Shown: in pieces, positions 3,675 to 54,477 of the stretch
Position numbering within the stretch: position 1 is the first letter of the stretch
Layout: each line of letters starts with the position of its first letter
Notes under the pieces: generated by a model
Databases searched by the model: none
What the model was told of the DNA's origin: nothing
What the model saw: the letters and a program-made list of their open reading frames with translations, nothing else
Program-made: the position numbers and the translations under genes
Source: Polyangiales bacterium
GTDB lineage: Bacteria; Myxococcota_A; Polyangia; Polyangiales; Polyangiaceae
Assembly: GCA_038231275.1 (NCBI GenBank)
Contig: JBBRLQ010000003.1
Span: 172,340-236,339 of the forward strand
Direction: 5' to 3'
DNA length: 64,000 bases

Positions 3675-4050
3675 GTCTCGTTTGTATCGCGCATTTGGTC
3701 TACTGGGTCATCCCGTGACCGCCGACAAGACCTCCGAGCCGTCGCCCGCGCGGTCGAGGAGGACCTCCCGCACCAGCGGGACCTCCGGAACGAGCGGAGC
3801 CTCCGGCACCAGCGGGACCTCCGGAACGAGCGGAGCCTCCGGAACGAGCGGAACCACCGACGCTGGGGCCGGCGACAGCGGTTCGCCGACGGGCTTCTGC
3901 GACGTGAGCACGGCCATCCAACAAGAGCTCTACACGTTCGAGTACGCGAGCCTGACGAACCCTGTGCCATGCGTAAACAACGGAGCGTGCGCGGCGACGC
4001 AGTGTTGCTACCAGGCGGCGGCGGCACAGACCGCGTGCGTAGCGAAGTGA
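3672..4050 (+). CDS. small (TSG)n-repeat protein with Cys-rich C-terminus carrying a CCY..AAA motif; tentative
   Basis: ORF with GC-biased third positions. C-terminus (CVNNGACAATQCCYQAAAAQTAC) resembles the CCYRGDAAAT motif of the two Cys-rich paralogs at 15609..16746. No recognisable signal peptide from ATG 3672. Lies in the promoter gap of the SBP operon. Confidence 0.3.
3770..3855. repeat. tandem repeat (about 36-bp unit x2 plus partial) encoding (TSG)/(ASG) triplets
   Basis: caccagcgggacctccggaacgagcggagcctccgg repeated directly. Confidence 0.6.
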
Positions 4051-11778: not shown

Positions 11779-13278
11779 TCAACCGTCTGTCTTGTAGGGG
11801 TTTGGACGCGGCTCGGGGGTCGTGGCCGGCGGCGGCGTCGGGGGCGCGACGGGCGGCGGCGTGGTCGCGGCGGATGGCGGCAGCGGCGGCGGCGTGCCGC
11901 GAGGGGGACGCGTTCGCGGGGGACCCGACGCGTGTGCCGGCGTGCTCGCGCTCGGCTCGGCCGCCGTGGCGGTGGTCGGGGGCACGGCCGCCCCACCGGA
12001 GCTCGCAGGTTCGGCGGCGCTGGCGGCGAGCGGCGGCGGCGCGACGGGCGCCGCGAGCGGCGTGGACGGGACGTCGGTGGTCGCGGGAGCCTCGCGTCTC
12101 TTCATTCGCGGAACGACGACGGCCGCCGCACCGCCCGCGACCACGAGCGCCGCCACGACGGCGATCGCGCCACGCCTGGACCGCGGCGGCGCTTGCCTCG
12201 GCGCGACCTGCTGCGCGGTGACGGGAGCGCCGGTCTTGGACGACGCCTCTTGCGCGTACACGAGCGTGGGCTTCGCGGCGGCCATTCGCGCCGACGGCGA
12301 CGGCGCGGCGAGCGTGGGCATCTCCCCGATCGCCTTTCCGTCGCGAGGCGTGAGGCCCGCCCTGCGCGCGTCGAGCGACTCGCCGAACGAAGACCGCACG
12401 AGCTGCGCCACCTCCCCGTGCGCCGCGAGCCCCACCGGCCGCGCCGCCGCGTAGAGCGCGTCGGCGAGCGCCTCCATCGTGGGGAAGCGATCGTCCGGCG
12501 ACTTGGCGAGCGCGCGCGCGACGATCGCGTCGAACGCGGTGCCGAGCGCCACGCGCTCCGACGAGACGGGCGGCGGCACGTAATAGAGGAGGCGCATGAG
12601 CGCTTCGGCCTCGTTTGCCGCCGCGAAGAGCTGCTTGCTCGCGAGCCCCTCCCAGAGCACGACGCCGAGCGCGAAGACGTCGGCGCGGCGGTCCACGCCC
12701 TTGCCTTGCAGGTACTCGGGCGCCATGTACCCGAGCTTCCCCTTCAGCATGTCGCCGGTGGATGCCATGCCGGTGTGCGCGACGCATTTGGCGATGCCGA
12801 AGTCGCTGACGCGCGAGACCCCGTCGACGCCGACGAGCACGTTCTGAGGAGAGACGTCGCGGTGCACGAGGCCGAGAGGGCGACCTTCGCGATCCTTCGC
12901 CTCGTGAGCGGCGTGCAGACCGCTCGCTGCGTCGAGCACGACGCGCAAGAAAATCGCCGGCGTGGGGCCCGCGTCGCCGACGGCGAGGAGCTCGGCGAGC
13001 GAGACGCCGTCGATGTACTCCATGACCATCGTGACGGACGCGCCGTCGAGCTCGACGTCCCGAACGGCGACCACGTTGGCATGGCGGATGAGCGCCGAGA
13101 CGTACGCTTCTTTGACGAACATGTCGCGGAACGACTTCTGCTCGAGCAAATGCGGATGCGGCCTCTTCAGCGCCACGAGCTGCTCGAAGCCGAGCGCGCC
13201 GCGGACGCGACCCACGTAGACCTGCGCCATCCCTCCCGACGCCAGCTTGCCGACGATCTCGTAGCGGGTCGCGGTCAC
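11779..13278 (-). CDS. Ser/Thr protein kinase (Hanks-type) with Pro/Ala-rich C-terminal tail and a single TM-like segment
   Basis: Kinase subdomains: GxGxxG (GKLASGGMAQVYVG), VALK, HRDVSPQNVL, DFG (SDFGIAK), APE (MAPEY). Probable GTG start at 13276..13278. Confidence 0.85.
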   Translation of the reverse strand: MTATRYEIVGKLASGGMAQVYVGRVRGALGFEQLVALKRPHPHLLEQKSFRDMFVKEAYVSALIRHANVVAVRDVELDGASVTMVMEYIDGVSLAELLAVGDAGPTPAIFLRVVLDAASGLHAAHEAKDREGRPLGLVHRDVSPQNVLVGVDGVSRVSDFGIAKCVAHTGMASTGDMLKGKLGYMAPEYLQGKGVDRRADVFALGVVLWEGLASKQLFAAANEAEALMRLLYYVPPPVSSERVALGTAFDAIVARALAKSPDDRFPTMEALADALYAAARPVGLAAHGEVAQLVRSSFGESLDARRAGLTPRDGKAIGEMPTLAAPSPSARMAAAKPTLVYAQEASSKTGAPVTAQQVAPRQAPPRSRRGAIAVVAALVVAGGAAAVVVPRMKRREAPATTDVPSTPLAAPVAPPPLAASAAEPASSGGAAVPPTTATAAEPSASTPAHASGPPRTRPPRGTPPPLPPSAATTPPPVAPPTPPPATTPEPRPNPYKTDG

Positions 13279-13291
13279 GGGGAGGCGCGCC

Positions 13292-14200
13292 TCACAAGGA
13301 TCCCCGTAGGCCGGCCACGGCACCCCCCGTCGTCGGGGAGAGGACGAACGCGGTCTCACCGGTCTTCCAGCGAACCGCGAACAGCGCGAGCGCGCCGGTG
13401 ACCACGGCGGCGGCGGCGGTGACTCCGAGGAGCACGTTCGTGCGCACCACCGCCGCCCGTCCGTCGTCGACGAGCCCCGCGCACCCGGTGTGCGCGGCCT
13501 GATCGCACCGGTCGGTCACGAAGACGTCGTGCTGCCGGATGGCGTCGGTCCCCGACCAGATCGTGACGCCGCCAACGACCGCGGTCACGCCGAGGCCGAC
13601 CCACACCCACGCAGGCGACAGGCCCCCCTCGGGCGCGCGGGGCGGCGGAGGCTTTGCAGGCTCTGCGGTCGGCAATACGATCTCCTCGAGGGCGCCAGCG
13701 CGGAGCTCGATGGGCCGCTCGATCGCGCGCGCACCGTCGCGAACGACCACGAGGTGCTTGCCCGCCGTGATCCACGAGATCACGTTGGGCGCCACCGCGC
13801 CGCCATCGATCGTCGCGCTGCACGTGCCGCAGGCGACGCGGACGCGGCCCACGCGACCTCCGAACTTCGCGCGGAGCTTGGCCGCGAGATCAACGGCGGC
13901 GCCCTCTCCGTTACGCGCCGCCGCGCGGGCCGTGAGGGTCATGCCGAGCGCGGCGTCGTCGGCGTGCAGCGCCGCCTCGAGCGCGGAGAGGAGCGCGACG
14001 TCGTTGGGCGCGATCTCGTCGGCGCGCGCGAACTCCTGGGCCGCGGTCGCGAAGTCTCCTCGCCGTTGCGCCTCGGCGCCGCGGTCGTACGCGTCGCTCG
14101 CCGCGCGAGAGCGCGCGGTGTCCTCCGCGCGGGCACGTGGAACGGCCGTGAATGCGGCGACGGCAAGCAGCAGACTCACGCACCGCGCGGCTCGGAACAC
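13292..14200 (-). CDS. secreted TPR-like / PEGA-like protein with C-terminal transmembrane segment
   Basis: Signal peptide (LLLAVAAFTAVPRARAED); helical TPR-like N-terminus; PEGA-like stretch (VRVACGTCSATIDGGAVAPNVISWITAGKHLVVV); TM near C-terminus. 13 bp upstream of the kinase gene. Confidence 0.55.
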   Translation of the reverse strand: MFRAARCVSLLLAVAAFTAVPRARAEDTARSRAASDAYDRGAEAQRRGDFATAAQEFARADEIAPNDVALLSALEAALHADDAALGMTLTARAAARNGEGAAVDLAAKLRAKFGGRVGRVRVACGTCSATIDGGAVAPNVISWITAGKHLVVVRDGARAIERPIELRAGALEEIVLPTAEPAKPPPPRAPEGGLSPAWVWVGLGVTAVVGGVTIWSGTDAIRQHDVFVTDRCDQAAHTGCAGLVDDGRAAVVRTNVLLGVTAAAAVVTGALALFAVRWKTGETAFVLSPTTGGAVAGLRGSL

Positions 14201-14219: not shown

Positions 14220-15587
14220 TCAGGAGCGGTGTCCGGTCCCGTACTTGGCGAGCATTCGGCCGAGGTGCGTGCGATCGAGCCCGGCGATTCGTGCCGCCGC
14301 CGACTGGTTGCCGTGGGTTTGCGCGAGGAGCGCGCGCAGGTAGACGACGGTGAACCGCTCGATCATCGCATCCTTCAACGTCGCGTACGGCTGCGACATG
14401 TCGAGGAGCTCCGAGAAGACCATGTCGAGCTTGTCCGAGCGACGAGAGAGGACCTCGGGCAGCTCGCCGAGCGCCGCGTACGCGTACACGGCGTTCCGCA
14501 GCTCGCGGACGTTGCCGGGCCAAACGCGCGCGTGCAAGCGGGGCAGGACCTCGGGCGGCAGGCCGGTGAGCCCCGCCTCCTTCGCGAAGCGATTGGCCAA
14601 GACCTCCACGTCCTCGACGCGATCGCGCAGCGCGGGCACGTTGAGGCGGACGATCGCGAGGCGGTAGAAGAGATCCTCACGGTACTGACCGGCGCCGACC
14701 TCCGCGAGGAGATCGCGGTTGGTCGCCGCGACGACGCGCACGCGCACCTTGCGCACCGAGTCGCCGCCGACCGGGCGGATTTCGCCTTCCTCGAGCGCGC
14801 GGAGGAGCATCGGCTGCACGTCGAGCGGGAGCTCGCCGATCTCGTCGAGGAAGAGCGTGCCGCCGTCGGCCGACTCGAACGCGCCGCGCCGCGCCTCCGA
14901 GGCGCCGGTGAACGCCCCTTTTTTGTGGCCGAACAGCTCGCTGGCGATGAGCTCGCGCGAGAACGCGCCGCAGTTGACGGCGACGAACGGCGCCTTCGCG
15001 ACCTTGGAGCGCGCGTGGAGCGCGCGGGCGACCAGCTCCTTGCCGACGCCGGACTCCCCCTCGACCAGGATCGGCACGAGCGACCCTTCGAGCCGAATGA
15101 GCGCGGCGAACAGCCGCTGCATCGCCGGCGAGTGCCCGAGGATGCCCGCGTACTCGGTCACCGGGAACGGGATCTTCGCGTCCAGTCCTTCGGTGTCGGC
15201 GCCGATGAGGACGCTCGGGCGACCGACCGAGATGCGACTTCCCGGCGCCAGCACCATCCCCTCCACGCGCTGGCCGAGGTAGAACGTGCCGTTGCGGCTC
15301 CCCAGATCGCGGACGAGCACGCCTTCGGGCGCGAGCTCGAGCTCGAGGTGGCGGCGCGAGACCGTGGGATCCGCGATGACGATGTCACAGTCCGGCGCCG
15401 ATCCGATGACGCACTTGCCGCTCGTCAGGCGGAACGCCTTGGGCTCCGCCGCGGCGTCCACGCACCGCAGCACCACCCCGAGCGGGCCGTCCATCTTCGC
15501 CGCGCTTCGCGGCATCACGTCGGTCACCGCCACAGCCGCGCCCGGCGGATGGGGCGGCGGCGGCTCGTCGCGAGGCCTTCGGGTCAT
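14220..15587 (-). CDS. sigma-54-dependent transcriptional activator with N-terminal FHA domain (FHA-AAA+-HTH bacterial enhancer-binding protein)
   Basis: FHA core (IGSAPDCDIVIADPTVSRRHLELE..GSRNGTFY). AAA+ Walker A GESGVGKE, GAFTGA, ESELFGH. Sigma-54 contact motif matching consensus GAFTGA. Arg-finger region. C-terminal Fis-type HTH (AARIAGLDRTHLGRMLAKYG). Confidence 0.9.
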   Translation of the reverse strand: MTRRPRDEPPPPHPPGAAVAVTDVMPRSAAKMDGPLGVVLRCVDAAAEPKAFRLTSGKCVIGSAPDCDIVIADPTVSRRHLELELAPEGVLVRDLGSRNGTFYLGQRVEGMVLAPGSRISVGRPSVLIGADTEGLDAKIPFPVTEYAGILGHSPAMQRLFAALIRLEGSLVPILVEGESGVGKELVARALHARSKVAKAPFVAVNCGAFSRELIASELFGHKKGAFTGASEARRGAFESADGGTLFLDEIGELPLDVQPMLLRALEEGEIRPVGGDSVRKVRVRVVAATNRDLLAEVGAGQYREDLFYRLAIVRLNVPALRDRVEDVEVLANRFAKEAGLTGLPPEVLPRLHARVWPGNVRELRNAVYAYAALGELPEVLSRRSDKLDMVFSELLDMSQPYATLKDAMIERFTVVYLRALLAQTHGNQSAAARIAGLDRTHLGRMLAKYGTGHRS

Positions 15588-15608
15588 CTGCCAGAGTCTA
15601 CTTCATCG

Positions 15609-23479: not shown

Positions 23480-24982
23480 ATGCGCCTCTCTCTCGTCGTC
23501 GCCCTGCTTCCTCTCCTGTCGGTCGCCGCGTGCGGCGGGCGCTTCCAAGCCATCGACGATGGGTCGAGCGGCAGCAGCGGGTCGAGCGGCAGCAGCGGGT
23601 CGAGCGGCAGCAGCGGGTCGAGCGGCAGCAGCGGGTCGAGCGGCAGCAGCGGATCGAGCGGCAGCAGCGGATCGAGCGGCAGCAGCGGATCGAGCGGGGA
23701 CGTGGGGGGCCTCACGCTGGGCTCGTACGATCTGACATTTTCTCTGGTGACGCAGGACACGCAAGGTGGCCTCTTTGGGCCGCCGCCGTCGATCAACCAC
23801 GCGTTCCGCGTGGATCTCGTAGAGAGCAAGGGGACCGTGCTCGGGCTGGTGACGCCACGATGGGGCGCGCCGTCGATCTACTCCGTGGCGATCGAGCCGA
23901 GCTCCGTGGTGCTGAGCGGCAAGGGGAAGTACAGCGAGAATTTTTCGACCGACACGTGGAGCACGATCACGATCTGGCGCGTCCACTCCGGCGGGCTTTC
24001 GGCGAGCTTCGACGCGACCGGCGTGGAGGACGCGAGCGGTGGCGACATCATCGCGCACGGCAACATCCGCGGGAGCGGCTTCCTTACCGTCGACGCGCTC
24101 GCGCCGGAGGTCCGCATCGGCGCGACGTCGCCCATGGGGCCCGAGGGCGCGCTCCTCCCCTGGGATCCGATCACGCTCACGTTCGCCGAGACGGTGTCGA
24201 GCGCCGGCGATCCGTTCGCCAGTTTCGCCATCACCTCGAACGGCGGCGCGCCCGTCGGTCTGAAGGTCGACGCTCCGGTGAACGCCCCGGCCCCGTTCGC
24301 CGGAGTCATCGCCGGCGCAGCGCGCCTCACGAGCTTCGCCCCGATCGGCGCCTCGACGGTCGCGTGGCCCAATGGCCTCGCCGATCCCGCCGGGCACGCG
24401 CTCGGCGCCGTGAAGCAGCCGCTTTCGTTCCTGCCGCTGCCGGTCTCCCTGAAGCAGCACACCTTCGACGGCGACGTCGTGACCGTCGGCACCTGGGGCT
24501 CCACGACGCTGCTCGGCGGGCTCGGCGGCCCCGACGCGTCGTGCGAGAGCGGCGGCTGCGCGCAGATCGGCTCCTTCCTCGATGGGTATTGCCAGGGGCA
24601 GACGCAGCGCCTCGGCGTCGCCGCGCGCCTCGATACGAGCGCGGCGACCGGCATCTCGATTCGCTACCGCGTCTTCGTCGAGGACAAGGGTAGCGGCGCG
24701 CCGTACATTCCTGCGGCATTCGCGGTGCAGACGGCGGCGCCGGGCTCGAACGTCCACACCGAAAGCGTCAACCCGACGCCTAGCGATTGGAAGAAGCTGG
24801 CCGCGCCGTGGAAGGGAATGGGCTGGGCGACCGACTGGACCACCATGAGCTTCGGCGTGCCCATCGCGAAGGAGACCGGCGTAGGCATCATCGCGGGCAG
24901 CGGCCCCAACTCGAGCCCGTGCGGCCTCGTCCCCGCGCCGTCGAACGTGATCGTCCTCGTCGACTCGATCTCCGCGAACTAG
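23480..24982 (+). CDS. lipoprotein with long (SSG)n linker and about 430-aa C-terminal domain of unknown function
   Basis: Signal peptide plus lipobox (LLPLLSVAACGG); (SSG)x~17 run; remaining sequence has no motif recognised by eye. Confidence 0.65.
   Translation: MRLSLVVALLPLLSVAACGGRFQAIDDGSSGSSGSSGSSGSSGSSGSSGSSGSSGSSGSSGSSGSSGSSGSSGDVGGLTLGSYDLTFSLVTQDTQGGLFGPPPSINHAFRVDLVESKGTVLGLVTPRWGAPSIYSVAIEPSSVVLSGKGKYSENFSTDTWSTITIWRVHSGGLSASFDATGVEDASGGDIIAHGNIRGSGFLTVDALAPEVRIGATSPMGPEGALLPWDPITLTFAETVSSAGDPFASFAITSNGGAPVGLKVDAPVNAPAPFAGVIAGAARLTSFAPIGASTVAWPNGLADPAGHALGAVKQPLSFLPLPVSLKQHTFDGDVVTVGTWGSTTLLGGLGGPDASCESGGCAQIGSFLDGYCQGQTQRLGVAARLDTSAATGISIRYRVFVEDKGSGAPYIPAAFAVQTAAPGSNVHTESVNPTPSDWKKLAAPWKGMGWATDWTTMSFGVPIAKETGVGIIAGSGPNSSPCGLVPAPSNVIVLVDSISAN
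23561..23696. repeat. 18-bp tandem DNA repeat (about 7.5 copies; GGGTCGAGCGGCAGCAGC with a G/A variant) encoding (SSG)n
   Basis: Near-perfect copies; two sub-variants (gggtcg.. x5 then ggatcg.. x3). Confidence 0.8.
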
Positions 24983-25064: not shown

Positions 25065-25655
25065 TCACACCGCGATGAGGTGGCCGGAGCGGCGCGCCTT
25101 GGTCGCGAGGTACGACGCGTTGTGGTGGCCGGCCGGCATCGCGTGCGGCACGCGCTCCGCGATCACGATCCCGCACGCCTCGAGCTGCCGGAGCTTGTCG
25201 GGGTTGTTGGTGAGCAGGCTCACCGAACGGACGCCGAGGATCCGCAGCATTCCTGCGGCCGGCGAGTAGTCGCGCTCGTCGTCCTTGAAGCCCAGCGCGA
25301 GGTTCGCGTCGACGGTGTCGAACCCTTGCTCCTGCAGCCGGTAGGCGCGCACCTTGTTGACGAGCCCGATGCCGCGCCCTTCTTGCCGCATGTAGAGCAG
25401 CACGCCGCGCGGCGCCGCGCCGATGCGCTCGAGCCCGCGTTCCAGTTGGTCGCGGCAGTCGCAGCGGAGCGACCCCATGACGTCGCCCGTCAAGCACTCC
25501 GAGTGCATGCGGGTCAGGACTCCCTCCTCGCCGAACACGTCGCCGTGCACGAGCGCGACGTGCTCCTTCTTGTCCTTCGCGTCGACGAAGACGTGGATAC
25601 GGAAGCGTCCGAAGCGGGTTGGCAGCTCGGCAATGCTCGCGAGGTCGATGGTCAT
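25065..25655 (-). CDS. ribA: GTP cyclohydrolase II (riboflavin biosynthesis)
   Basis: 196 aa. Zinc Cys cluster and catalytic motifs (HSECLTGDVMGSLRCDCRDQL; YMRQEGRGIGLVNKVRAY). Confidence 0.9.
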   Translation of the reverse strand: MTIDLASIAELPTRFGRFRIHVFVDAKDKKEHVALVHGDVFGEEGVLTRMHSECLTGDVMGSLRCDCRDQLERGLERIGAAPRGVLLYMRQEGRGIGLVNKVRAYRLQEQGFDTVDANLALGFKDDERDYSPAAGMLRILGVRSVSLLTNNPDKLRQLEACGIVIAERVPHAMPAGHHNASYLATKARRSGHLIAV

Positions 25656-25684: not shown

Positions 25685-26215
25685 TCACTTGGGGAGGAGG
25701 ACCGTGTCGACGACGTGGATGACGCCGTTGGTGCACTCGATGTCGGCCTTGGTGACCTTGGCGCCGTTGATCATGACGTTGCCGCCGCTGGCGTTGATGG
25801 TCACCTCGCCGCCCTGCACGGTCTTCGCGCTCTTCAGCGTGACGACGTCGGACGAGCCCACGTGTCCGGATACGACGTGGTACGTGAGCACAGCCTTCAG
25901 CTTGGCCTTGTTCTCCGGCTTGAGCAGGTCGTCGACGGTGCCGGCCGGGAGCTTGGCGAACGCCTCGTCGGTCGGCGCGAAGACGGTGAACGGACCGGGT
26001 CCTTTGAGCGTGTCGACGAGGTCGGCGGCCTTGAGCGCCGTCACGAGCGTCTTGAAGGAGCCGGCACCGACCGCGGTGTCGACGATGTCGCTCTTTGCGG
26101 TCGCGCTGGTGGGAGAGGCCATGCCGGGCTCGGCCGAGTTAGCCCCACCGCACGCCGCGAGCGCGAGCATGGACAGCGTGGAGGCGGCGAGGAGCGTTCG
26201 GAGCAAGGGATTCAT
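25685..26215 (-). CDS. fasciclin (FAS1) domain lipoprotein
   Basis: Signal peptide plus lipobox ([16 protein letters not shown]). FAS1 motifs ([11 protein letters not shown]..; VLTYHVV..; [14 protein letters not shown]). Confidence 0.8.
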
Positions 26216-26271
26216 CGTGGGGACCTCTTTCGGGTGGTTGGTGAGTTTCGAGTCCCCCATTGTTTAATGCT

Positions 26272-26304
26272 TGTCCAATTATTGTCAAGGATTGGTCTTA
26301 GACG
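26272..26304. promoter_or_regulatory. three tandem 11-bp direct repeats (TTGTCCAATTA TTGTCAAGGAT TGGTCTTAGAC); candidate CarH-type operator in the divergent promoter region
   Basis: Direct repeats at exact 11-bp phasing, 22-54 bp upstream of the GTG start of the MerR/B12 gene. Bottom strand reads TAATTGGACAA/ATCCTTGACAA, resembling the reported nAnnTnnACAn half-sites. Confidence 0.45.
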
Positions 26305-26325
26305 AAACCGTGCTAGTCTCTCCTT

Positions 26326-27252
26326 GTGCCTGCCCACGAATCCCGCGCGCGAGCGCGTAGCGCCGAGCCCGGGTACTCGATCCGCGTCGCCTCGCGTCTC
26401 ACGCAGATCGAGCCCGACACCCTCCGCATGTGGGAGCGCCGTTACGGCTTCCCGGTGCCAACGCGCACGGCGGGAGGAAGCCGCGTCTACACCGAGGCGG
26501 ACGTCCAGACGCTCCTCCTCGTGAAGCGCGCGATGAAGGCGGGCTACCGGCCCGGCGAGATCGTCGGCCGCCGCGCCGAAGAGATCGCGCAGATGATCGC
26601 GCGCAGCGGTCCGGTGGCGGAGGACGCGCCGGCGCAGCCCGCGTCGATGGACGCCGTCCTCACCGCGCTCGCGCGCGACGACGCGAGGCAGGTACGCCTC
26701 GAGATCAAGAACCTCGCGCTCGTGCTCGGCCCCAAGCGCTTCGTCACGGACCTCGCGTATCCGCTCGCGAAGAAGGTCGGCGAGCTGTGGCAAGCGGGGA
26801 AGCTGGAGGTGCGGCAAGAACACCTCCTCTCCGAGTCGCTCGCGACCCAGCTGCGCGTTCTCCTCTCCGCGTTCGAGGACGCGCAAGAGGGGCCGAACGT
26901 GGTCTTGACGACGCTCCCCGACGAGCCGCACGGCCTCGGCCTCACCATGATCGCGCTCTACTGCGCGATCCATCAGGTCGTGCCGCGCCTCCTCGGCGTG
27001 AACACGCCTCCCGAGCAGATCGTCGCGGCGGCGACGGCGCTCGACGTGTCGGCGGTCGGCCTCTCGGTGGTGCTCCCGCCCGATCCGGCGCGCGCGGCGA
27101 AGCAAATCCGCTGGATCGCCGGCGAGCTCCCGCGAAAGGTGCGCTTGTGGGTCGGCGGCATGGGCACGCCTGCCCTAGGCCTCAAGGGAGACTCGGTCGA
27201 CGTCGTGCAGACGTGGGCGCAGCTCGACGACGTGATCGCGGCGCTGCGCTGA
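26326..27252 (+). CDS. MerR-family HTH regulator fused to a cobalamin (B12)-binding domain (CarH/LitR-like light-responsive repressor candidate)
   Basis: N-terminal MerR HTH (YSIRVASRLTQIEPDTLRMWERRYGFP). C-terminal B12-binding Rossmann region with lower-axial-His motif E-P-H-G-L-G (ExHxxG) within VVLTTLPDEPHGLGLTMIAL. Confidence 0.8.
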   Translation: MPAHESRARARSAEPGYSIRVASRLTQIEPDTLRMWERRYGFPVPTRTAGGSRVYTEADVQTLLLVKRAMKAGYRPGEIVGRRAEEIAQMIARSGPVAEDAPAQPASMDAVLTALARDDARQVRLEIKNLALVLGPKRFVTDLAYPLAKKVGELWQAGKLEVRQEHLLSESLATQLRVLLSAFEDAQEGPNVVLTTLPDEPHGLGLTMIALYCAIHQVVPRLLGVNTPPEQIVAAATALDVSAVGLSVVLPPDPARAAKQIRWIAGELPRKVRLWVGGMGTPALGLKGDSVDVVQTWAQLDDVIAALR

Positions 27253-27276: not shown

Positions 27277-28560
27277 CTACACCTTCCGCTTCGCCTCGCT
27301 CGGCACGTTCGGGTGCTGGAGGATCATGTTGCGGATGTGCACCTGCCGCTTCACGAGCGGCTGACGGAGCATGTGCGTGAGGATCGAAGGCGGCGTCGCC
27401 GGGAAGCGGGAGAACGCCTGGATGAGCACCACCGACGTGAAATTGCGCGCGCAGAAGAGCGCCGCCGTCTTCATGTTGATCGTCTGTCCGAGCAGGTGCG
27501 GCAGCACGCGACCCTCGGTGTTCCATATGATCTCGAATTTTTCCTCGGGCGTCGCGCGCGAGAACTTTCCCTTGAAGAGGCCCTTCGCGGTGGTGCGCGT
27601 CCGGTCGGTGACGTCGCGATCCATCGAAGCTTTGTAGATCTCGAGGAGCCGCTTCGGCGTCAAGATCTTCCGCACCAGCGCTTCTGTGACCTGGATGTTG
27701 CGGAGGAGCATGCGCTGCACGCGCGCGTCGTTCAGGATCGACACGCGCTCGCACAGCGCCGCGAGGCCGACGGGGTTGCGGTGGTGCGCGGCGATGAGGC
27801 GCGCGTGATCGAGGTTCGCGCGATCGTTCTCGAGGATCGCCTTGATGACGTGCGGATCGGGATCGAAGCACAGCGCGAACAGATTCGCGCCCGACTCGTT
27901 GCGCGCCGCGTGGATGCGCTGATCGGGCGACATCCTGTGGTACTTCGTCTCGAAGAGCTTCCGGTAGTTTTGGACCTCGTTCGGCTGCGCCTCGTTTGGA
28001 TCGGTGACGTCGCCCTCGGCCGGCACCAGCGACGCGTGCTTCTTCTCTTCGCCGTCGCCCTCGGGAGCGTCGGGATCTTCGGGGAGGTTCTCGAGGCTGT
28101 CGGGTCCTTCGGGGACCATCGCGCTCGCGTCGGCTGCGGTGTCCCAGTCGTCCTCCGAAGGGAGCTCGAGCTGCGAGTCGATCGGATCGTCCGCCCCCCC
28201 TTCGTCGAGCGGCTCGAGCATGACCGGCGGCGGCTCAGGCAGGTCTTCGGCGATCCATGAGACGGGCGGCGGTGGGATCTCTCCCGGCACTTCCTCGACG
28301 ATCTCGTGCGCGTGCGCCATTGGCTCGTCCGCGAGCAGCTCGTCGAGCTGGGGCACGCTCGGATCCTCGGCGACCTCGATCGCCCCGCGCTCGGTCAGGC
28401 GCGTCAGGATCTGATCCACCTGCGGCGCCGCGAGGCCCGTGAGATCGACGAGATCTCGCACCGAGAGCTGCCCGTTCACGCGGGAGAGCACGAACTTCTC
28501 GAGGCGCGACAGCGGGGGACCCGGCGCGTCGCCCTGGATCCGGCGCGGCGTCTTCTTCAT
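27277..28560 (-). CDS. hypothetical protein with acidic/Pro-rich central region (427 aa)
   Basis: Long ORF with coherent composition. N-terminal winged-helix-like segment; no catalytic motifs recognised. Confidence 0.5.
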   Translation of the reverse strand: MKKTPRRIQGDAPGPPLSRLEKFVLSRVNGQLSVRDLVDLTGLAAPQVDQILTRLTERGAIEVAEDPSVPQLDELLADEPMAHAHEIVEEVPGEIPPPPVSWIAEDLPEPPPVMLEPLDEGGADDPIDSQLELPSEDDWDTAADASAMVPEGPDSLENLPEDPDAPEGDGEEKKHASLVPAEGDVTDPNEAQPNEVQNYRKLFETKYHRMSPDQRIHAARNESGANLFALCFDPDPHVIKAILENDRANLDHARLIAAHHRNPVGLAALCERVSILNDARVQRMLLRNIQVTEALVRKILTPKRLLEIYKASMDRDVTDRTRTTAKGLFKGKFSRATPEEKFEIIWNTEGRVLPHLLGQTINMKTAALFCARNFTSVVLIQAFSRFPATPPSILTHMLRQPLVKRQVHIRNMILQHPNVPSEAKRKV

Positions 28561-34845: not shown

Positions 34846-35562
34846 ATGAAGAAGATCACGATGGGCGGGCTCGATGCCGTGCTCGCCGGCGGCACCGATC
34901 GCCAAGGGGGCGGAGACGGCCCGCTGCTCGTGCTCCTCCACGGCTTCGGCGCTCCGGGGGACGATCTCGTCTCGCTCCATCGCGTCATCGACGCGCCGTC
35001 TGGCACCCGCTTCCTCTTCCCGGTCGCGCCCGTAACGCTGCCTCCGCACTACGGCGCCGGTCGCGCCTGGTGGCACATCGACATGGTCGCCCTCGACCGC
35101 GCCGTGCGCGAGGGAAGGTCGCGGGACCTCTCTCGCGACGTCCCCGACGGGCTCGCCGACGCGCGCGCGAAGCTCGTCGCGATGCTCGACGAGGCAAAGG
35201 TGATCCTGTCGCCGTCCGCGATCGTGCTCGGCGGATTTTCCCAAGGCGCGATGCTCTCGTGCGACGTCGCGCTCCACTCCGACATGCCGCTCGCCGGTCT
35301 GGTGCTGCTATCGGGCACGTTGCTCGCGGAAGCGGAGTGGACCTCGCGGATGCCTTCGCGCAAGGGATTGCCGGTGCTCCAGTCGCACGGCCGTCAGGAT
35401 CCGATGCTTCCGTTCGACATGGCGGAGCGCTTGCGTGATCTCTTGAAGGAGGCCGGGCTCGCCGTCACGTTCGTCCCGTTCAACGGCGGTCACAGTATCC
35501 CGCCCGCCGCTCTCGACGGCTTGCGCCCGTTCCTCGCGAGCGCGTTCAGCCGTACTGGTTGA
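34846..35562 (+). CDS. phospholipase/carboxylesterase family alpha/beta hydrolase
   Basis: 238 aa. LLHGFGA, nucleophile elbow GFSQGA, Asp/His downstream (..GGHSIP). Confidence 0.85.
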   Translation: MKKITMGGLDAVLAGGTDRQGGGDGPLLVLLHGFGAPGDDLVSLHRVIDAPSGTRFLFPVAPVTLPPHYGAGRAWWHIDMVALDRAVREGRSRDLSRDVPDGLADARAKLVAMLDEAKVILSPSAIVLGGFSQGAMLSCDVALHSDMPLAGLVLLSGTLLAEAEWTSRMPSRKGLPVLQSHGRQDPMLPFDMAERLRDLLKEAGLAVTFVPFNGGHSIPPAALDGLRPFLASAFSRTG

Positions 35563-36478
35563 CGCGGTTTCTTCCGCCGCGCTTCGCCGCGTAGAGCGCC
35601 TCGTCGGCGGCGGCGACGAGCTGCACCGACGACTCGGCCGCGAACTCCGGCATCCCGGCCACCCCGAGGCTCACCGTCACGCCGACGCGTGTGCCGGCGG
35701 CGTCGAGCGGGGACGCCGCGACGTGCCCGCGGATGCGCTCGGCGAGGACGCACGCCTGATCGCGCGAGACGCCGCGGCAAATCACGGCGAACTCCTCTCC
35801 TCCGTACCGCGCTAACACGTCCTCTGCTCGAAGCGTGCGGGCAACGATCTGCGTGAGCGTGACGAGCACCGCGTCGCCCGCGAGGTGCCCGAGCGTGTCG
35901 TTGACGCGCTTGAAGTGATCGACGTCGAGCATCACGAGCGACAAGTTCGTGCGGTGTCGCCGCGCGTACGCGAGCTCGGTGTCGAGTCGGGTGAGGAAGT
36001 ATTTCTTGTTGAAGATGCCGGTGAGGCCGTCCCGGAGCGCGGCGTCGTACATCTGCTTCTGGAAGTTTTCTTCGAGCTCGTCGTGCAGCGTGAACTTGAC
36101 CAGCGTGTTCGGCCCGAGCTGGATCTTGTCCTCGGCGCGGAGCGCGTGGGTCATGGTGCGCTCGCCGTTGACGAGCATCCCGTTCGCGCTCTTCAAGTCC
36201 TCGATGATCCACTCGCCGCCCGGCGCGCTCCACAGGCGCGCGTGCCGACGAGAGACGCCGTCGTCGTCGAAGCGAATCGTGGAGGAAGGCGAGCGCCCCA
36301 AGATGAGCTCGCCTTCCTCCAAGCGAAACGTCTCGCCGACGTTCGCGCCGATGAGCACGATCAGGTACGGCGTCAGCTTGCGCGCCCGCGCTTTCTCCGC
36401 GCTGCCGATGGACGAGATCCTCGTGATCGAGGTCGCTTCCTCTTGCTCGTCGTCGGGATTCCGCGGTGGCGGGGACAT
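35546..36478 (-). CDS. FHA domain-GGDEF diguanylate cyclase
   Basis: FHA (LGRSPSSTIRFDDDGVSRRHARL). GGDEF domain with RYGGEEF active site and DxLTG/KRVND motifs. Confidence 0.9.
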   Translation of the reverse strand: MSPPPRNPDDEQEEATSITRISSIGSAEKARARKLTPYLIVLIGANVGETFRLEEGELILGRSPSSTIRFDDDGVSRRHARLWSAPGGEWIIEDLKSANGMLVNGERTMTHALRAEDKIQLGPNTLVKFTLHDELEENFQKQMYDAALRDGLTGIFNKKYFLTRLDTELAYARRHRTNLSLVMLDVDHFKRVNDTLGHLAGDAVLVTLTQIVARTLRAEDVLARYGGEEFAVICRGVSRDQACVLAERIRGHVAASPLDAAGTRVGVTVSLGVAGMPEFAAESSVQLVAAADEALYAAKRGGRNRVNQYG

Positions 36479-36549
36479 GCGTGTTACCGTGATCGTCGCA
36501 CCCTGCCCTCCACACGGTCAAGGGCGGGTCCGGCCAGGAGAAATGCGTC

Positions 36550-37329
36550 GTGTGTGAGCTCCTCGGAATGGAGTGCAACGTCCCAACCGACATCGTCTTT
36601 TCGTTCTCGGGGCTCGCCCTTCGCGGCGGCCGTAAAGGGCCACACGGCGACGGCTGGGGTCTGTGCCTCTACGAAGGTCAGGCCGTTCGCGCCTTCCTCG
36701 AGCCGGCCGCCGCCGCCGCCTCGCCGCTCGCGACGTTCCTCCGGCAAAACCCCATCAAGACGCTCCTCGCGGTCGCGCACGTGCGGAAGAAGACGCGCGG
36801 AAAGGTGTCGCTGGCGAACACTCATCCGTTCGTCCGTGAGCTGTGGGGGCGGACGTTCGTCTTTGCCCACAATGGCACCGTGAAGGAGGCGCGCCGGCAC
36901 CCGCTCGGGCGTTTCCGGCCGATCGGCGAGACCGACAGCGAGCACGCGTTCTGCGTGATCATGGACGCGCTCGCGCGCGCGTTCCCGCGGTATCCACGCG
37001 TAAAGCGAGACCTATGGGAGGCGGTCGCAGAGGTCGGAGGTCGACTGGGTAAGGACGGGACCTTCAACTTCCTGCTGGGCGACGGCACGCACCTCTTCGC
37101 GCGCTGCGCGACGAAGCTCCACTACATCGTGCGCAAGGCGCCGTTCAAGCACGCGACCTTGGCGGACGACGATCTGGTCGTGGACTTCTCCGCCGTCACG
37201 ACGCCGCGCGATCGCGTCGCGGTCGTCGCCACGATGCCGCTGACGCGCGACGAGGTGTGGACGCAGGGCAAGCCCGGTCACATGTGGGTCTTCGATCACG
37301 GCGCATTACGTGCGACGCTGCGGTCGTGA
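36550..37329 (+). CDS. class II glutamine amidotransferase domain protein (YafJ-type, N-terminal Cys nucleophile)
   Basis: Begins MCELLG (Cys2 nucleophile); ..HVRKKTRGKVSLANTHPF.. typical of GATase-2 family. Confidence 0.8.
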   Translation: MCELLGMECNVPTDIVFSFSGLALRGGRKGPHGDGWGLCLYEGQAVRAFLEPAAAAASPLATFLRQNPIKTLLAVAHVRKKTRGKVSLANTHPFVRELWGRTFVFAHNGTVKEARRHPLGRFRPIGETDSEHAFCVIMDALARAFPRYPRVKRDLWEAVAEVGGRLGKDGTFNFLLGDGTHLFARCATKLHYIVRKAPFKHATLADDDLVVDFSAVTTPRDRVAVVATMPLTRDEVWTQGKPGHMWVFDHGALRATLRS

Positions 37330-38101
37330 GGCCTGTCCGTATCTTTTTCGCGGCCGCGACGTCTATGATCGGTACACGGTCTTGAACGACGACTCGCCCA
37401 TCCACCGGCTTCTTGCGAACCGCGATCTGTTCGTCGTGTTCCAGCCGATCGTCGACATTCGCACGCACGCGACGTTCGCGTACGAGGCGCTGGTGCGCAC
37501 CAAATCGAAGGACTTCGACGGTCCGCCGGCGATGTTCAACGCGGCGGTGCAGGGCGACTGCGCGGGGCGGCTCGGACGGCTGATTCGCGAGGTGGCGGTC
37601 GAGGGGTGCTCGACGCATCCGCTCTTCTTGAACGTGCACCCGAGCGAGCTGAACGAGCACTACATCGTGCAGCCCGACGATCCGATCTTCCAGCACTCGG
37701 AAGAGGTGTTCCTGGAGATCACCGAGGCAGTGCCGCTCAGCCACTTCCGGCTCTGCCAGAACGTGCTCCACGAGGTGCGCGGGCGCGGGGTCTATCTGGT
37801 CGTCGACGATCTCGGCGCCGGCTACTCCAACCTGAAGTACATCGCCGATCTCCACCCGCGCATCGTGAAGCTCGATCGCGGCCTCATCGCCGGCTTGTCG
37901 CTTCACTCGCGGCTCTTCAAGCTCGTGAAATCGATCGTCGTTCTGTGCCGCGATCTGGGCGCGCAGGTCGTCGCCGAAGGCATCGAGACGCGCCAAGAGC
38001 TCGAGGCCGCGCGCGAAGCCGGGGCGCACTATGCGCAGGGCTACCTGTTGGCGCGGCCTGCGTTTCCGATGCCGCAGGCGGTTTGGCCGGACGGGCTCTA
38101 G
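37310..38101 (+). CDS. EAL domain c-di-GMP phosphodiesterase (stand-alone EAL)
   Basis: FQPIVD, YEALVR, NVHPSEL, VDDLGAGYS, KLD, EGIET motifs. 20-bp overlap with the GATase gene; true start may be a downstream GTG/TTG. Confidence 0.8.
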   Translation: MRRCGREACPYLFRGRDVYDRYTVLNDDSPIHRLLANRDLFVVFQPIVDIRTHATFAYEALVRTKSKDFDGPPAMFNAAVQGDCAGRLGRLIREVAVEGCSTHPLFLNVHPSELNEHYIVQPDDPIFQHSEEVFLEITEAVPLSHFRLCQNVLHEVRGRGVYLVVDDLGAGYSNLKYIADLHPRIVKLDRGLIAGLSLHSRLFKLVKSIVVLCRDLGAQVVAEGIETRQELEAAREAGAHYAQGYLLARPAFPMPQAVWPDGL

Positions 38102-44735: not shown

Positions 44736-45871
44736 AGGCGCTGCTCCCAGCTTCCGTCCTGTTGCTCGTGCTCGTGCCCCTGGCGTGCTCCCCGGCGAGC
44801 CCGGGAGACCCCGCCACGAACGCGACGCCCCCGCCCGCACCGTCGGCAACGGCGCAGGATGCGTCGCCTCCTCCCGACGCCGCCATCGACGACGGCGGCA
44901 TCATCGGCGACGGAGGTGCGCTGCGACTCACCTGTCCCAAGAAAGCCCCGTTCGACACGACCATCCCCGGTCTGCTCGAGCAGTGCACCAAGCGTGTTCT
45001 CATCGCTGCTCTCGATGGTGCGAAGCTTTCGCTGTCGAGCAACGACGGTGCAACGTGGACCGACCCCGTTTCGCTCGACCCCGCGATGGTCGACCCGCAC
45101 GTGTTCAACTTCGCGACCGGCAACGGGCTCGTCGTCGCGATGACACGCGGCGGACTTTACACGAGCACGGACGCCAAGACGTGGACGCTGGCCCCGTCGA
45201 CGGCGCCTGCAGCGTACAACTACTCGGGGTTCGTCCTCTTCGCCGACGGCCGGTTTGCTTCGAGTGGCAACGGCGGCTCGTTCGGCTCCGACGATGGAAT
45301 CAGTTGGATGGGGTACGGAGCGAGAGAGAAGTATCCCTCGGGCGCCACCGCAGGGGTCGAGACCTTCGGAATGGGGTTCTTCGCCGGGCAATGGATCCTC
45401 GCGGGTCGCGAGCGCGACACCAACGTCGCCCTCTACCGCACGTCGAGCGACGGACTCGGCTGGAGCGTGGACAAGAACGTCGGGACGGCTCCACGACAGG
45501 GAGCCTATGGCTCGGTCAACGTGGTGCAGGACCAGGTCTTCGTCGTCGGCGCCGGCATCGTTGCACGAACTACGGATGGCTCGCTGTGGTCCGAGAGCGC
45601 CAACACCACGGTCAATTTCGCCGTCTCGGACGGCAAGCGGAGCGTTGGGTTCGCGGCGAGCCAAACCTTCACCTCCACAGACGGGATCACCTGGACGAAG
45701 CTCGGTGACGCACCGACCCTCTACAACGCCATCTTCGTCGAAGGCACGTGGTTCGGGTTGGATGAGAGATCCTGGTACACGTCGCCCGACGCCGTGAAGT
45801 GGACTGCGGTTCTCACGCCGCCAACGAGCAACTATGTTGCCACCCTCGGTTACGCGCGCATCCTGAAGTAA
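44732..45871 (+). CDS. BNR/Asp-box repeat beta-propeller lipoprotein, paralog of 40218..41351
   Basis: Signal plus lipobox (LLLVLVPLACSPAS). Motifs SNDGATW, STDAKTW, SDDGISW, SSDGLGW, TTDGSLW, STDGITW. Confidence 0.65.
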   Translation: MKALLPASVLLLVLVPLACSPASPGDPATNATPPPAPSATAQDASPPPDAAIDDGGIIGDGGALRLTCPKKAPFDTTIPGLLEQCTKRVLIAALDGAKLSLSSNDGATWTDPVSLDPAMVDPHVFNFATGNGLVVAMTRGGLYTSTDAKTWTLAPSTAPAAYNYSGFVLFADGRFASSGNGGSFGSDDGISWMGYGAREKYPSGATAGVETFGMGFFAGQWILAGRERDTNVALYRTSSDGLGWSVDKNVGTAPRQGAYGSVNVVQDQVFVVGAGIVARTTDGSLWSESANTTVNFAVSDGKRSVGFAASQTFTSTDGITWTKLGDAPTLYNAIFVEGTWFGLDERSWYTSPDAVKWTAVLTPPTSNYVATLGYARILK

Positions 45872-45912
45872 GAGGCTCGTCTCCCCTGAAGAAAATCCCC
45901 TGAAGAAAACCA

Positions 45913-45944
45913 AAAGGCGGTCTCCTTTCGGAGACCGCCTTTTG
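45913..45944. terminator. rho-independent bidirectional terminator (AAAAGGCGGTCTCC-tttc-GGAGACCGCCTTTT)
   Basis: 14-bp perfect stem, 4-nt loop, flanked by an A-run and a T-run, 42 bp after the TAA of the BNR gene. Also a 13-bp direct repeat CCCCTGAAGAAAA x2 at 45883..45909. Confidence 0.75.
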
Positions 45945-45952
45945 CGTTTCGG

Positions 45953-46036
45953 GCGCAGGCGAAGGAGTCGAACCTTCTCGAGTCATCGAACACCCTGGAG
46001 GGCGGCTCCCCCGAGCCCTTTCCGTCGATGCCTGCG
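45953..46036 (-). ncRNA. tRNA-like element: canonical T-arm (GAAGG-TTCGACT-CCTTC) plus perfect 7-bp acceptor helix (CGCAGGC/GCCTGCG); 5' half is non-canonical. Possible tRNA pseudogene or att-site remnant
   Basis: Folded by hand on the minus strand. T-loop fits TΨCRANN, and a discriminator plus CC follows. D and anticodon arms could not be fitted (A at position 8, no 7-nt anticodon loop found). Confidence 0.3.
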
Positions 46037-46156
46037 TGCTTCACCCATAAGCATCGCGCGTGCCGCGGGCAAATTACGCGCAAGTGCGCGAGGTGACGTA
46101 GCGGCGCCGACGGCCCAGCGCCAGGGTTTTGTCGTCGTGCGTCGACGCGCCGTGGA

Positions 46157-46708
46157 TCAGTTGGTGTCTTTGGCCTGGAACTCGGTGTCGACGGTGATGT
46201 CGGGCTTCACCGCCACGCCGAGGTACGACGGGGTCTTGATGCCGTAGTCGTTGATGTTGAGGGCGACGTTGCCCTTCACGGAGAACGTGTCGCCGTCCAG
46301 CTTCGCGGAGTAGTGGACGGTGACGTCCTTGGTCACGCCGTGGATCGTCATCGTCCCCTTCGCGTCGCCCGACGACTCCTTGCCGGCCGCGGGGAACTTC
46401 AGGCTCGCCCGAGGGACCTTCAGCGTCGCGGTGGGGTACGTGTCGGCTTCGAGGTAGTTCCGCGTGTGCTTGTCGCGGAGCCCGATGCCGGTCGAGATCG
46501 CCCCGAGCTTCACGACGACGGAGACGGTCGTGCCGTCGTCGGTCACGTCGACCTCGCTCGTGGTGCCGTTGATCGCGAGGCCGGCGGGGCCGGAGGCGTG
46601 GAACGCCCCCTTCGCGTTGCCCGTCTTGGCGAGCTTCGCGTCGGCGACGCCGGGGATTGCGAGCGCGAGCGCCAGGGTTGCGAACGCGAGAATGCTTCGT
46701 GCCTTCAT
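46157..46708 (-). CDS. YceI-like periplasmic protein
   Basis: Signal peptide (ILAFATLALALAIPGVADA); YceI-like beta-barrel sequence pattern; start at internal Met 46708. Confidence 0.75.
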   Translation of the reverse strand: MKARSILAFATLALALAIPGVADAKLAKTGNAKGAFHASGPAGLAINGTTSEVDVTDDGTTVSVVVKLGAISTGIGLRDKHTRNYLEADTYPTATLKVPRASLKFPAAGKESSGDAKGTMTIHGVTKDVTVHYSAKLDGDTFSVKGNVALNINDYGIKTPSYLGVAVKPDITVDTEFQAKDTN

Positions 46709-47205
46709 TTGTGCTCCTTCAGCCACTGATTGAGAAACTCTGCGCTCTTGTCCCATCCCGAACGGAGGCTCTTCTCGAACGCCGACTCGAGGATGCCGCC
46801 GATGGCGAAGACCTTCGCCTCGAATTGAAAGTCCGAGACGCGACGAACCTTGCCTTCGCCGGCCGGCTCCGCCTTGATCGTTCCCTTCGTCGTCACCTTG
46901 TCGGCGAGGGAGCTCGGCGTCGTCTTCCACGTGACGACCTTGGTGGCCTTGTCGAACGTCGCGTCCTCCACGTACGAGAACGACGAGCCGAGCGCCTTGG
47001 CGACCGGCCCCGGGGCGTCCATCTTCGGCGTCACCTTCACGCGGCGGACGATCTCCTTGTCGCCGTCCTTGAAGTCCAAGACCTCGTAGTGCGGGAACTG
47101 GAGGCCGTCGCGGAAGAGCGCTTCGTTGAAGGTCTTGTCGAAGAAGATCTTCCAGAAGGTCGCCTCGTCGCAGTGAATCTCGTGTGAAAGGGAGAAGCTT
47201 TTCAT
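46705..47205 (-). CDS. hypothetical protein (SRPBCC/DUF2505-like?), 166 aa, translationally coupled to the YceI-like gene
   Basis: ATGA overlap with the downstream gene. Only the last 166 codons of the long ORF 46705..48474 are taken as real (the rest is Arg-rich antisense of the phosphoesterase gene). Confidence 0.5.
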   Translation of the reverse strand: MKSFSLSHEIHCDEATFWKIFFDKTFNEALFRDGLQFPHYEVLDFKDGDKEIVRRVKVTPKMDAPGPVAKALGSSFSYVEDATFDKATKVVTWKTTPSSLADKVTTKGTIKAEPAGEGKVRRVSDFQFEAKVFAIGGILESAFEKSLRSGWDKSAEFLNQWLKEHK

Positions 47206-47271
47206 GTGAAACGAGCCTAGCGCGGGGAAGCGCGCGGCAAAAGCCGACGTTTTCACCTGCGAGGTGACCCG

Positions 47272-54445: not shown

Positions 54446-54477
54446 CCCGAGATGCTACTCTCGGAACGGGACGAAGG

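Follow-up and report, generated by a model that had tools for sequence, protein, structure and literature searches.

What does a CarH-type regulator control when no carotenoid genes lie near it? This question is raised by a 64,000-nucleotide stretch of DNA from a Polyangiales bacterium (GenBank assembly GCA_038231275.1, contig JBBRLQ010000003.1, positions 172,340 to 236,339; hereafter the window, meaning the whole 64-kb stretch that was analysed). Here a gene for a MerR-type, B12-binding regulator, which we call carH, is divergent from a gene for a fasciclin (FAS1) lipoprotein that is followed by ribA, encoding a GTP cyclohydrolase II. Pfam searches of the window, including 36 further open reading frames (ORFs), found neither carotenoid (crt) genes nor photolyase genes in the 64 kb. 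From the features of the regulator, of the gap between the two divergent units and of related loci in other genomes, we consider it highly probable that the protein is an adenosylcobalamin (AdoCbl)-dependent photoreceptor repressor of the CarH type, which would act on a four-unit operator in the gap and shut off both fasciclin-ribA and carH itself until light arrives.

The regulator and its gene

The carH gene (26326..27252, plus strand) starts with GTG and encodes a 308-residue protein made up of a MerR helix-turn-helix (HTH) domain, a four-helix bundle and a Rossmann B12-binding domain. Pfam recognised MerR_1 (aa 17-79), B12-binding_2 (aa 127-179) and B12-binding (aa 191-295), all above their curated cut-offs, with the B12-binding domain scoring 37.4 bits against a cut-off of 32.1. 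Together with motif searches by regular expression, these profile matches bear out a first, sequence-only reading of the locus, made from the DNA letters and a list of ORFs, which had described a MerR HTH joined to a cobalamin-binding domain that carries the motif EPHGLG.

Three motifs have been put forward as criteria for telling myxobacterial CarH from the B12-independent CarA: RxWERRY in the recognition helix, Wx9EH, and a B12-binding motif of the form D/ExHx2G/P-x41-SxT/V-x22-27-GG (Perez-Castano et al. 2022, PMC9304148). The window protein has all three. Its DNA-binding domain (26374..26562, plus strand; aa 17-79, MerR_1 E 2.8e-15) contains RMWERRY at aa 34-40. The Wx9EH motif, W155...E165 H166 (26788..26823, plus strand; aa 155-166), reads WQAGKLEVRQEH and aligns with the corresponding motif WHRGEIGVAEEH of Thermus thermophilus CarH (TtCarH), where it forms a cap over the upper-axial adenosyl group (PMC9304148). 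The B12-binding motif, ExHxxG-x41-SxV-x27-GG by the published definition (PMC9304148), spans aa 200-278 (26923..27159, plus strand) and opens with EPHGLG (aa 200-205, nt 26923-26940), whose His202 is predicted to serve as the lower axial ligand. Across 35 aligned homologs the Wx9EH motif was invariant, as were the individual residues W36, E37, R38, R39 and Y40 of the recognition helix and W155, E165, H166, E200, H202 and G205 of the cobalamin-binding part.

Structural comparison pointed to the same relative. The best sequence match in the PDB was TtCarH (5c8d, E 2e-27, covering aa 15-260), with Wx9EH and ExHxxG in register. An AlphaFold2 model built on the 35-homolog alignment had a mean pLDDT (predicted local distance difference test) of 87.7, and when it was compared with the PDB using Foldseek the top 50 matches were all TtCarH chains; the B12-binding module superimposed on that of TtCarH with a template-modelling (TM) score of up to 0.82, normalised by the target chain. 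T. thermophilus CarH/LitR (5C8D, 5C8E, 5C8F, 3WHP) thus shares with the window protein its three modules as well as RxWERRY, Wx9EH and ExHxxG...SxV...GG. Every sequence-level criterion in the literature supports assignment to the CarH type (class I LitR), which the sequence-only reading had already proposed on the basis of the architecture, and all characterised proteins with the CarH motif set respond to light (PMC9304148).

Two neighbouring identities fit poorly. CarA of Myxococcus xanthus likewise combines a MerR DNA-binding domain with a C-terminal domain of the B12-binding type, and its operator is similar, but it is without the Trp of Wx9EH, is B12-independent and occurs only in Cystobacterineae (PMC9304148), whereas in the window protein the Trp and the whole of Wx9EH are intact. 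The class II and III LitR proteins of Pseudomonas and Burkholderia are also MerR-type light regulators, with regulons that are not centred on carotenoids and that include photolyase and folE (PMC9758184). Class II LitR, however, has the four-helix bundle only, lacks a Rossmann B12-binding domain, works with a LOV partner and has folE rather than ribA as a target (PMC9758184); the Rossmann domain and His motif found here speak against that class.

The public annotation of carH (P0001) is shorter, at 274 aa, starting from Met35 (MWERRYGF...) and so losing the first HTH helix. The longer N-terminus is common to carH orthologs in the 35-homolog alignment, and a TAG stop at 26314-16 leaves the GTG at 26326 as the sole possible in-frame start for it. 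We favour the GTG over Met35 because of these ortholog N-termini and because each of the four orthologs has a -10-like hexamer, TAnnnT, whose end lies exactly 6 nt ahead of the GTG (TAGTCT, TATGTT, TAGGTT and TATGTT). Inspection of the sequence before the GTG found no Shine-Dalgarno sequence; taken with the position of the hexamer, this suggests that the carH mRNA is leaderless or nearly so.

The operator and promoters in the divergent gap

The fasciclin ATG (26215..26213, minus strand) and the carH GTG are separated by 110 bp (26216-26325). Both the length of this gap and its unusual AT-richness had been remarked on in the sequence-only reading, and both hold: GC content is 0.38 at 26260-26319, compared with 0.69 for the whole window. 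Known CarH operators comprise three or four tandem 11-bp units that lie over a -35 or -10 element, each unit being either a direct repeat (DR), 5'-nnnnTnnACAn-3', or a pseudo-repeat (dr) in which TnnACA is incomplete (PMC9304148). The gap contains a predicted operator of this type (26260..26303, minus strand), with four units in the order dr-DR-DR-DR when the bottom strand is read 26303->26260. The pseudo-repeat GTCTAAGACCA (26303..26293; top strand TGGTCTTAGAC) agrees at two of the four defined positions and is followed by the full repeats ATCCTTGACAA (26292..26282), TAATTGGACAA (26281..26271) and GCATTAAACAA (26270..26260; top strand TTGTTTAATGC), all on the minus strand. The sequence-only reading had seen three of these four units and had likened them to a CarH operator on the bottom strand. 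The three 11-mers are present as it wrote them, but at 26271-81, 26282-92 and 26293-303, its coordinates being one base too high. Its comparison with CarH operators stands, although the third of its repeats is only a pseudo-repeat and the full repeat at 26260-26270 had been missed.

Three full TnnACA repeats in tandem are found at this one place in the 64 kb, and 200 shuffles that kept the local composition produced no such array. The nTGTnnAnnTn-type pattern of the sequence-only reading is also rare, with 0.08 occurrences expected, whereas the looser pattern TGTC-N7-TGTC-N8-GTC occurs twice against 1.47 expected and is insignificant alone. A repeat-array scan found no further CarH arrays in the window. 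One site with a single mismatch (3910-3934, minus strand) was dismissed as a CarH site, as TnnACA cannot be matched across three units there. An alternative parsing of the operator as two direct repeats and one inverted repeat was disfavoured, given that the window copy of the inverted element, TAGACGA, is unsupportive and that in relatives the element is the carH -35.

The operator overlaps predicted promoters on both strands; all promoter positions given here are predictions from sequence. A consensus scan of the gap found one sigma-70-like site, on the minus strand, against 0.0 expected. This putative fasciclin-ribA promoter (26261..26288, minus strand) consists of a -35 TTGACA (26288..26283), a 16-bp spacer and a -10 TAAACA (26266..26261), although the scan itself paired TTGACA with a different -10, AACAAT, across 18 bp. 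With the 16-bp spacer the promoter lies wholly within the operator, with the -35 in the first full repeat, the middle repeat as spacer and the -10 in the third full repeat. The arrangement TTGACA-N16-TAnACA recurs in the close orthologs L081, L084 and L086, and before an SRPBCC-ribA gene pair in locus L089. In the opposite direction, the predicted carH promoter (26292..26319, plus strand) would pair a weak -35, TTGGTC (26292-97), which lies over the pseudo-repeat, with the -10 TAGTCT (26314-19) across a 16-bp spacer. Transcription would then begin at about 26254 on the minus strand and at about 26326 on the plus strand. In the relatives the carH -35 is TGGACA with a 17-bp spacer and, like that of the window, it abuts or overlaps the fourth unit.

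This layout resembles that of known systems while differing from each. The T. thermophilus operator is likewise a tandem array of 11-bp nnnnTnnACAn repeats with the -35 embedded in one of them, but has three units, compared with four (three full) here, and serves carotenoid targets, whereas fasciclin and ribA are adjacent here; a -35 inside a repeat is also found in M. xanthus and other CarH operators (PMC9304148). Bacillus megaterium CarH has operators of four repeats, or of three full repeats and one pseudo-repeat, over the -35 or -10; it belongs to a distant lineage with carotenoid targets, and it is by description rather than by sequence that we liken it to the window. Nearer to the present case are Sorangium cellulosum and Haliangium ochraceum, which also stand outside the Cystobacterineae and have a single operator of three or four full or pseudo-repeats over the -35 or -10 between divergent promoters. 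Their CarH proteins repress in an AdoCbl- and light-dependent manner, and the S. cellulosum operators have been mapped experimentally (PMC9304148). In contrast to the window, where the operator stands between fasciclin-ribA and carH with no crt gene in 64 kb, theirs stand at carotenoid genes, in the crtI-carH and crtE-crtD intervals. The carH gene of Labilithrix luteola has no linkage to carotenoid genes, and the only site detected, with two full repeats and one pseudo-repeat, is upstream of carH itself (PMC9304148); by analogy, the arrangement in L. luteola may be the same as that of the window.

The fasciclin-ribA unit and its conservation

The first gene of the divergent unit encodes a FAS1 lipoprotein of 176 aa (25685..26215, minus strand; Pfam Fasciclin E 5e-44) with a signal peptide and the lipobox LAAC (…LALAAC), and an AAGAGG Shine-Dalgarno sequence stands 9 nt before its ATG. 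On the same strand, 29 bp downstream, lies ribA (25065..25655, minus strand), which encodes a monofunctional GTP cyclohydrolase II of 196 aa. The product matches Pfam GTP_cyclohydro2 (E 4e-66) and scores 240.1 bits with TIGR00505 (cut-off 205.85) and 262.3 bits with NF001591 (cut-off 148). Alignment with Escherichia coli RibA (2bz0, E 2e-59) showed that HSECLTGD...LRCDC and RAY are kept and that the equivalents of the zinc-binding Cys54/65/67 and of Tyr105 are retained. The catalytic Tyr of RibA separates it from formamidopyrimidine-forming paralogues, and the ribA product appears to be an authentic GTP cyclohydrolase II. Between fasciclin and ribA, a search of the minus strand gave no terminator. 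Rfam searches at gathering thresholds gave no riboswitch or other RNA in the window or in five orthologous loci, with cobalamin and flavin mononucleotide (FMN) riboswitches among those absent here, and a tRNA scan of the window found no tRNAs.

Close orthologs of carH, at 72-77% protein identity, were obtained through exact-protein look-ups: L081, in the metagenome-assembled genome (MAG) GCA_025359105.1, L084/L085 and L086. A scan of a genome collection gave at least 80 loci, the closest among the matches listed being 53% identical, and the neighbouring genes of the loci were identified by tblastn and by look-ups that carry Pfam annotation. In the intergenic alignment of the close orthologs, the repeat block forms a conserved island, TGTnTA…TGTCCAAnnATTGTCAAGGAnnnGTCnTnGACnAA. 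The repeats are thus conserved in the promoters of three orthologs, as L081, L084 and L086 each keep three full repeats and the pseudo-repeat, and the proposal of the sequence-only reading withstands the check that it had itself named as a possible refutation. For distant loci, an array was counted when at least two full repeats and one further unit occurred within 250 bp upstream of carH. By this definition, 13 of 21 distinct Polyangia-type loci, at 43-56% identity, have an array upstream of carH, which in all but one palindromic case is on the strand opposite carH.

Gene order across these loci singled out ribA. It adjoins carH in 10 of the 21 Polyangia-type loci but in none of the 64 others, which are mostly betaproteobacterial. 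In the close clade (L081, L084/L085 and L086) the order is fasciclin-(epimerase)-ribA, divergent from carH, and ribA is also divergent from carH in L006, L009 and L012, whereas in L002 and L004 it is downstream of carH. In L090, carH, an SRPBCC gene, ribA and an epimerase-like gene follow one another in tandem on one strand, abutting or overlapping in what is apparently a single operon, with the array ahead of carH. In L089, a photolyase gene is followed by a three-repeat operator (TTGACA-N16-TATACA) and then by SRPBCC-ribA. The linkage survives such rearrangement, with an operator present each time, and this makes a good comparative case for ribA as a CarH target. Fasciclin is divergent from carH in L081, L084, L086 and L006 and is confined to the window's clade and L006, so that ribA rather than fasciclin is the more widely conserved partner of carH. 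On these grounds we lean, with some reserve, towards a light- and B12-controlled ribA regulon in this Polyangia lineage.

About 177 kb of flanking DNA contained only four other arrays: two before SRPBCC-ribA in L089, one in L016 and one in L015, where the array precedes an operon with an NmrA/epimerase-like gene. In addition, three kinds of gene recur beside carH or behind arrays, encoding SRPBCC/polyketide-cyclase-like proteins, NAD-binding epimerase/NmrA/DUF1731 proteins and photolyase (L089, 3449-5612; L090, 1568-4299; L086, 1573-2490; L015, 1289-2977). By position, these SRPBCC, epimerase/NmrA/DUF1731 and photolyase genes are candidates for a wider Polyangia CarH regulon. The sequence-only reading had predicted that the carotenoid genes would lie outside the regulon, which is more than can be concluded from a 64-kb window.

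The spacing of the divergent unit varies. In L081 (4226-4391) and L084 (2780-2950) the gap between fasciclin and ribA measures 166-171 bp, compared with 29 bp in the window, and has no Rfam match, while in L086 an epimerase/DUF1731 gene occupies that position; the L081 and L084 gaps may be remnants of the epimerase gene.

A metagenome scan with the 20-bp operator core gave 19 matches, mostly by chance and on contigs of 34-47% GC, and no further close orthologs. The only match with a distant carH beside the core was L106, in which a carH homolog (609-1091, 29% identity) has the identical core TGTCCAAnnATTGTCAAGGA just upstream (543-562), in the opposite orientation relative to carH. In L093 and L099 the TGTCCAAnnATTGTCAAGGA core stands among further TTGACA/TGTCAA repeats, and no carH was detected.

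The Myxococcales MAG that carries L081, GCA_025359105.1, has two CarH paralogues, L081 (JANYHK010000061) at 77% and L091 (JANYHK010000007) at about 52% identity to the window protein, although contamination of the bin is possible. The L081 paralogue is linked to fasciclin-ribA, the L091 paralogue lies beside two-component sensor genes, and the Sorangiineae surveyed previously have a single CarH (PMC9304148).

The PDB matches of the window fasciclin are general FAS1 domains (TGFBI, Rhodobacter sphaeroides Fdp, CupS), and the algal carotenoid-binding protein AstaP is matched weakly (E 1e-13 to 1e-12). The paper describing the AstaP structure limits carotenoid binding to a subset of FAS1 proteins and calls for an experimental test of any other member, and for this reason a carotenoid-binding role for the window fasciclin is only a speculative lead. 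Fasciclin domains and the regulator family also co-occur, independently, in Cupriavidus pinatubonensis (L028, 5881-6714), where a betaproteobacterial CarH/LitR-family gene is followed, after about 1 kb, by two tandem fasciclin-domain coding stretches.

Around the locus, a gene for a 427-aa protein (27277-28560, minus strand) is convergent with carH and adjacent to it in all close orthologs, this adjacency being its sole tie to the CarH system. In the protein, aa 24-67 match a MarR/IclR-like HTH below threshold, and beyond a long acidic linker the C-terminal part matches no family. On the other side, the ORF at 23480-24982 (plus strand) contains an 18-bp tandem repeat (23561-23697; 7.6 copies, 99% identity) that encodes a (GSS)n linker after a lipoprotein-type signal peptide and gives a spurious Pfam Collagen match; in the orthologs this protein, at about 60% identity, is also next to ribA. 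Elsewhere in the window there are genes for two FHA-domain proteins, a sigma-54 activator and a GGDEF cyclase, and for a stand-alone EAL protein (14220-15602, minus strand; 35546-36517, minus strand; 37244-38101, plus strand), as well as for a Ser/Thr kinase with TPR repeats (51449-54454), and this FHA/GGDEF/EAL/kinase set is of the sort usual in myxobacterial signalling. Two stretches, each about 2.4 kb long (11779-14200 and 44736-47220), have no ORF that passes the coding filter based on GC content at third codon positions (GC3), and Rfam and the tRNA scan returned nothing in them.

Proposed mechanism, alternatives and implications

We propose that the locus works as a light-released switch. 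In the dark, AdoCbl-loaded CarH would oligomerise, as characterised homologs do in the form of a tetramer or a pair of dimers, and the oligomer would bind one face of the DNA along the four phased 11-bp repeats running 26303->26260. This occupancy would occlude the whole fasciclin-ribA promoter together with the carH -35, and both units would be shut off because the leftward -35, spacer and -10 lie within full repeats and the pseudo-repeat lies over the carH -35. Near-ultraviolet to green light would then break the Co-C bond of AdoCbl, whereupon the oligomer would disassemble and come off the operator. Transcription of both units would follow, yielding the surface FAS1 lipoprotein, additional GTP cyclohydrolase II and further CarH. 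Most plausibly, the extra RibA would provide flavin for photolyase or other flavoproteins, or replace photodamaged flavin.

Several points weigh against this account. The protein is only about 28-30% identical to TtCarH, and the NCBIfam CarH equivalog NF052513, though its best NCBIfam model, gave 121.8 bits against a cut-off of 400, which places the protein outside that narrow orthologous group, the cut-off being a model threshold rather than a biochemical feature. The residue after the Trp of Wx9EH is Gln156, in place of TtCarH H132, and the position is variable (A/E/Q/S/V/G/R) across the 35 homologs. H132 of TtCarH makes the bis-His adduct of the light state; a His at this position is reported for "many" CarH proteins but not for all (PMC9304148), and on account of Gln156 the light state here may differ from that of TtCarH. 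At the DNA level, the window's carH -35, TTGGTC, agrees at only 3 of 6 positions and makes a weak promoter assignment; the poor hexamer and its 16-bp spacer result from the absence of about 8 bp that the relatives carry between repeats and -10. In the relatives themselves the fourth unit fits better on the opposite (top) strand, ATGGACAA, which makes the role of the pseudo-repeat uncertain, and 8 of the 21 Polyangia-type loci have no array upstream of carH under the definition used. Finally, we infer rather than observe that the protein binds AdoCbl and DNA, forms oligomers and responds to light, and likewise where transcription starts and what the targets do for the cell.

The most serious alternative accepts the operator but confines its effect to one side, so that only the leftward fasciclin-ribA promoter is repressed while carH is constitutive, or is read from another promoter, and does not regulate itself. 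All three full repeats coincide with the leftward -35, spacer and -10, and the rightward promoter, with its poor -35, touches only the degenerate fourth unit. In the relatives, however, the spacing between the carH -35 TGGACA and the fourth unit is conserved and the two abut or overlap, the S. cellulosum CarH operators that lie between divergent promoters reportedly govern both sides (PMC9304148), and in L090 carH heads a tandem row of genes behind the array. We therefore consider repression of the leftward side alone unlikely.

Less probable still is the idea that the protein senses sufficiency of B12, as AdoCbl, and represses ribA when the cofactor is plentiful, as feedback on the supply of FMN for dimethylbenzimidazole through BluB. 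Dimethylbenzimidazole synthesis draws on the riboflavin pathway, ribA is the conserved target, and the locus has no cobalamin or FMN riboswitch by Rfam. Set against this, the protein keeps an intact Wx9EH, the motif tied specifically to the adenosyl group and photoreceptor function, ribA adjoins a photolyase gene in L089, the characterised proteins with the motif set are all light-responsive (PMC9304148), and Pfam searches of the window ORFs found no cob or bluB genes near carH.

There is very little room for a third explanation, in which the protein binds DNA independently of B12, as a CarA-like or non-class-I LitR regulator, and answers to something else, for instance an antirepressor, singlet oxygen or a photoreceptor partner. 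The family does have B12-independent members and members that depend on a LOV partner (PMC9304148, PMC9758184), and the score below the NCBIfam equivalog cut-off would fit one of these, but the Trp of Wx9EH and the Rossmann B12-binding domain are both present here, and the CarA pathway is confined to Cystobacterineae (PMC9304148). Scarcely worth entertaining is the notion that the repeats are no binding site but a by-product of two back-to-back AT-rich promoters in 11-bp register, for although two of the three ACA triplets belong to promoter hexamers and the loose TGTC pattern is insignificant alone, the middle repeat lies in an unconstrained spacer and yet its TTGGACA is conserved in 4/4 orthologs, no array arose in the 200 local shuffles, and the arrays reappear upstream of carH in 13 loci with otherwise unrelated surroundings.

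AdoCbl-dependent, light-released repression of both units thus remains our preferred reading. A more ambitious version of it would make CarH the head of a light regulon centred on something other than pigment genes and including ribA, SRPBCC, NAD-epimerase-like and photolyase genes, together with the FAS1 lipoprotein of the window's clade as a light-induced envelope binder of carotenoid or lipid, a counterpart of the photoprotective algal AstaP. In this version the source genome, like the MAG of L081, may also have a second, specialised CarH paralogue. Taken as a whole, this version is decidedly improbable.

What is known, then, is the kind of CarH and the type of operator; what is new is the predicted target set, fasciclin and ribA, with the pair of CarH paralogues in one MAG as a side observation. 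The comparative study of myxobacterial CarH contains no mention of fasciclin or ribA (PMC9304148), and among the papers that we searched none names CarH with GTP cyclohydrolase II or connects it with fasciclin. The closest precedent that we found for a light-induced cofactor supply is folE, encoding GTP cyclohydrolase I, which is light-induced in the LitR regulons of Pseudomonas.

The finding leaves the understanding of how CarH systems work unchanged. CarH is nevertheless the reference B12-based photoreceptor and a module in wide use for optogenetics and biomaterials, which gives its natural diversity practical interest, and this locus, where -35, spacer and -10 each occupy one repeat, offers a clean natural template for asking how many repeats CarH needs. 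GTP cyclohydrolase II catalyses the first step of riboflavin synthesis, and across Polyangia its gene is the one most consistently tied to CarH, sometimes together with photolyase. If the proposed regulon is real, a light-induced supply of flavin would take its place beside carotenoid synthesis and photolyase induction among the outputs of light sensing through B12.

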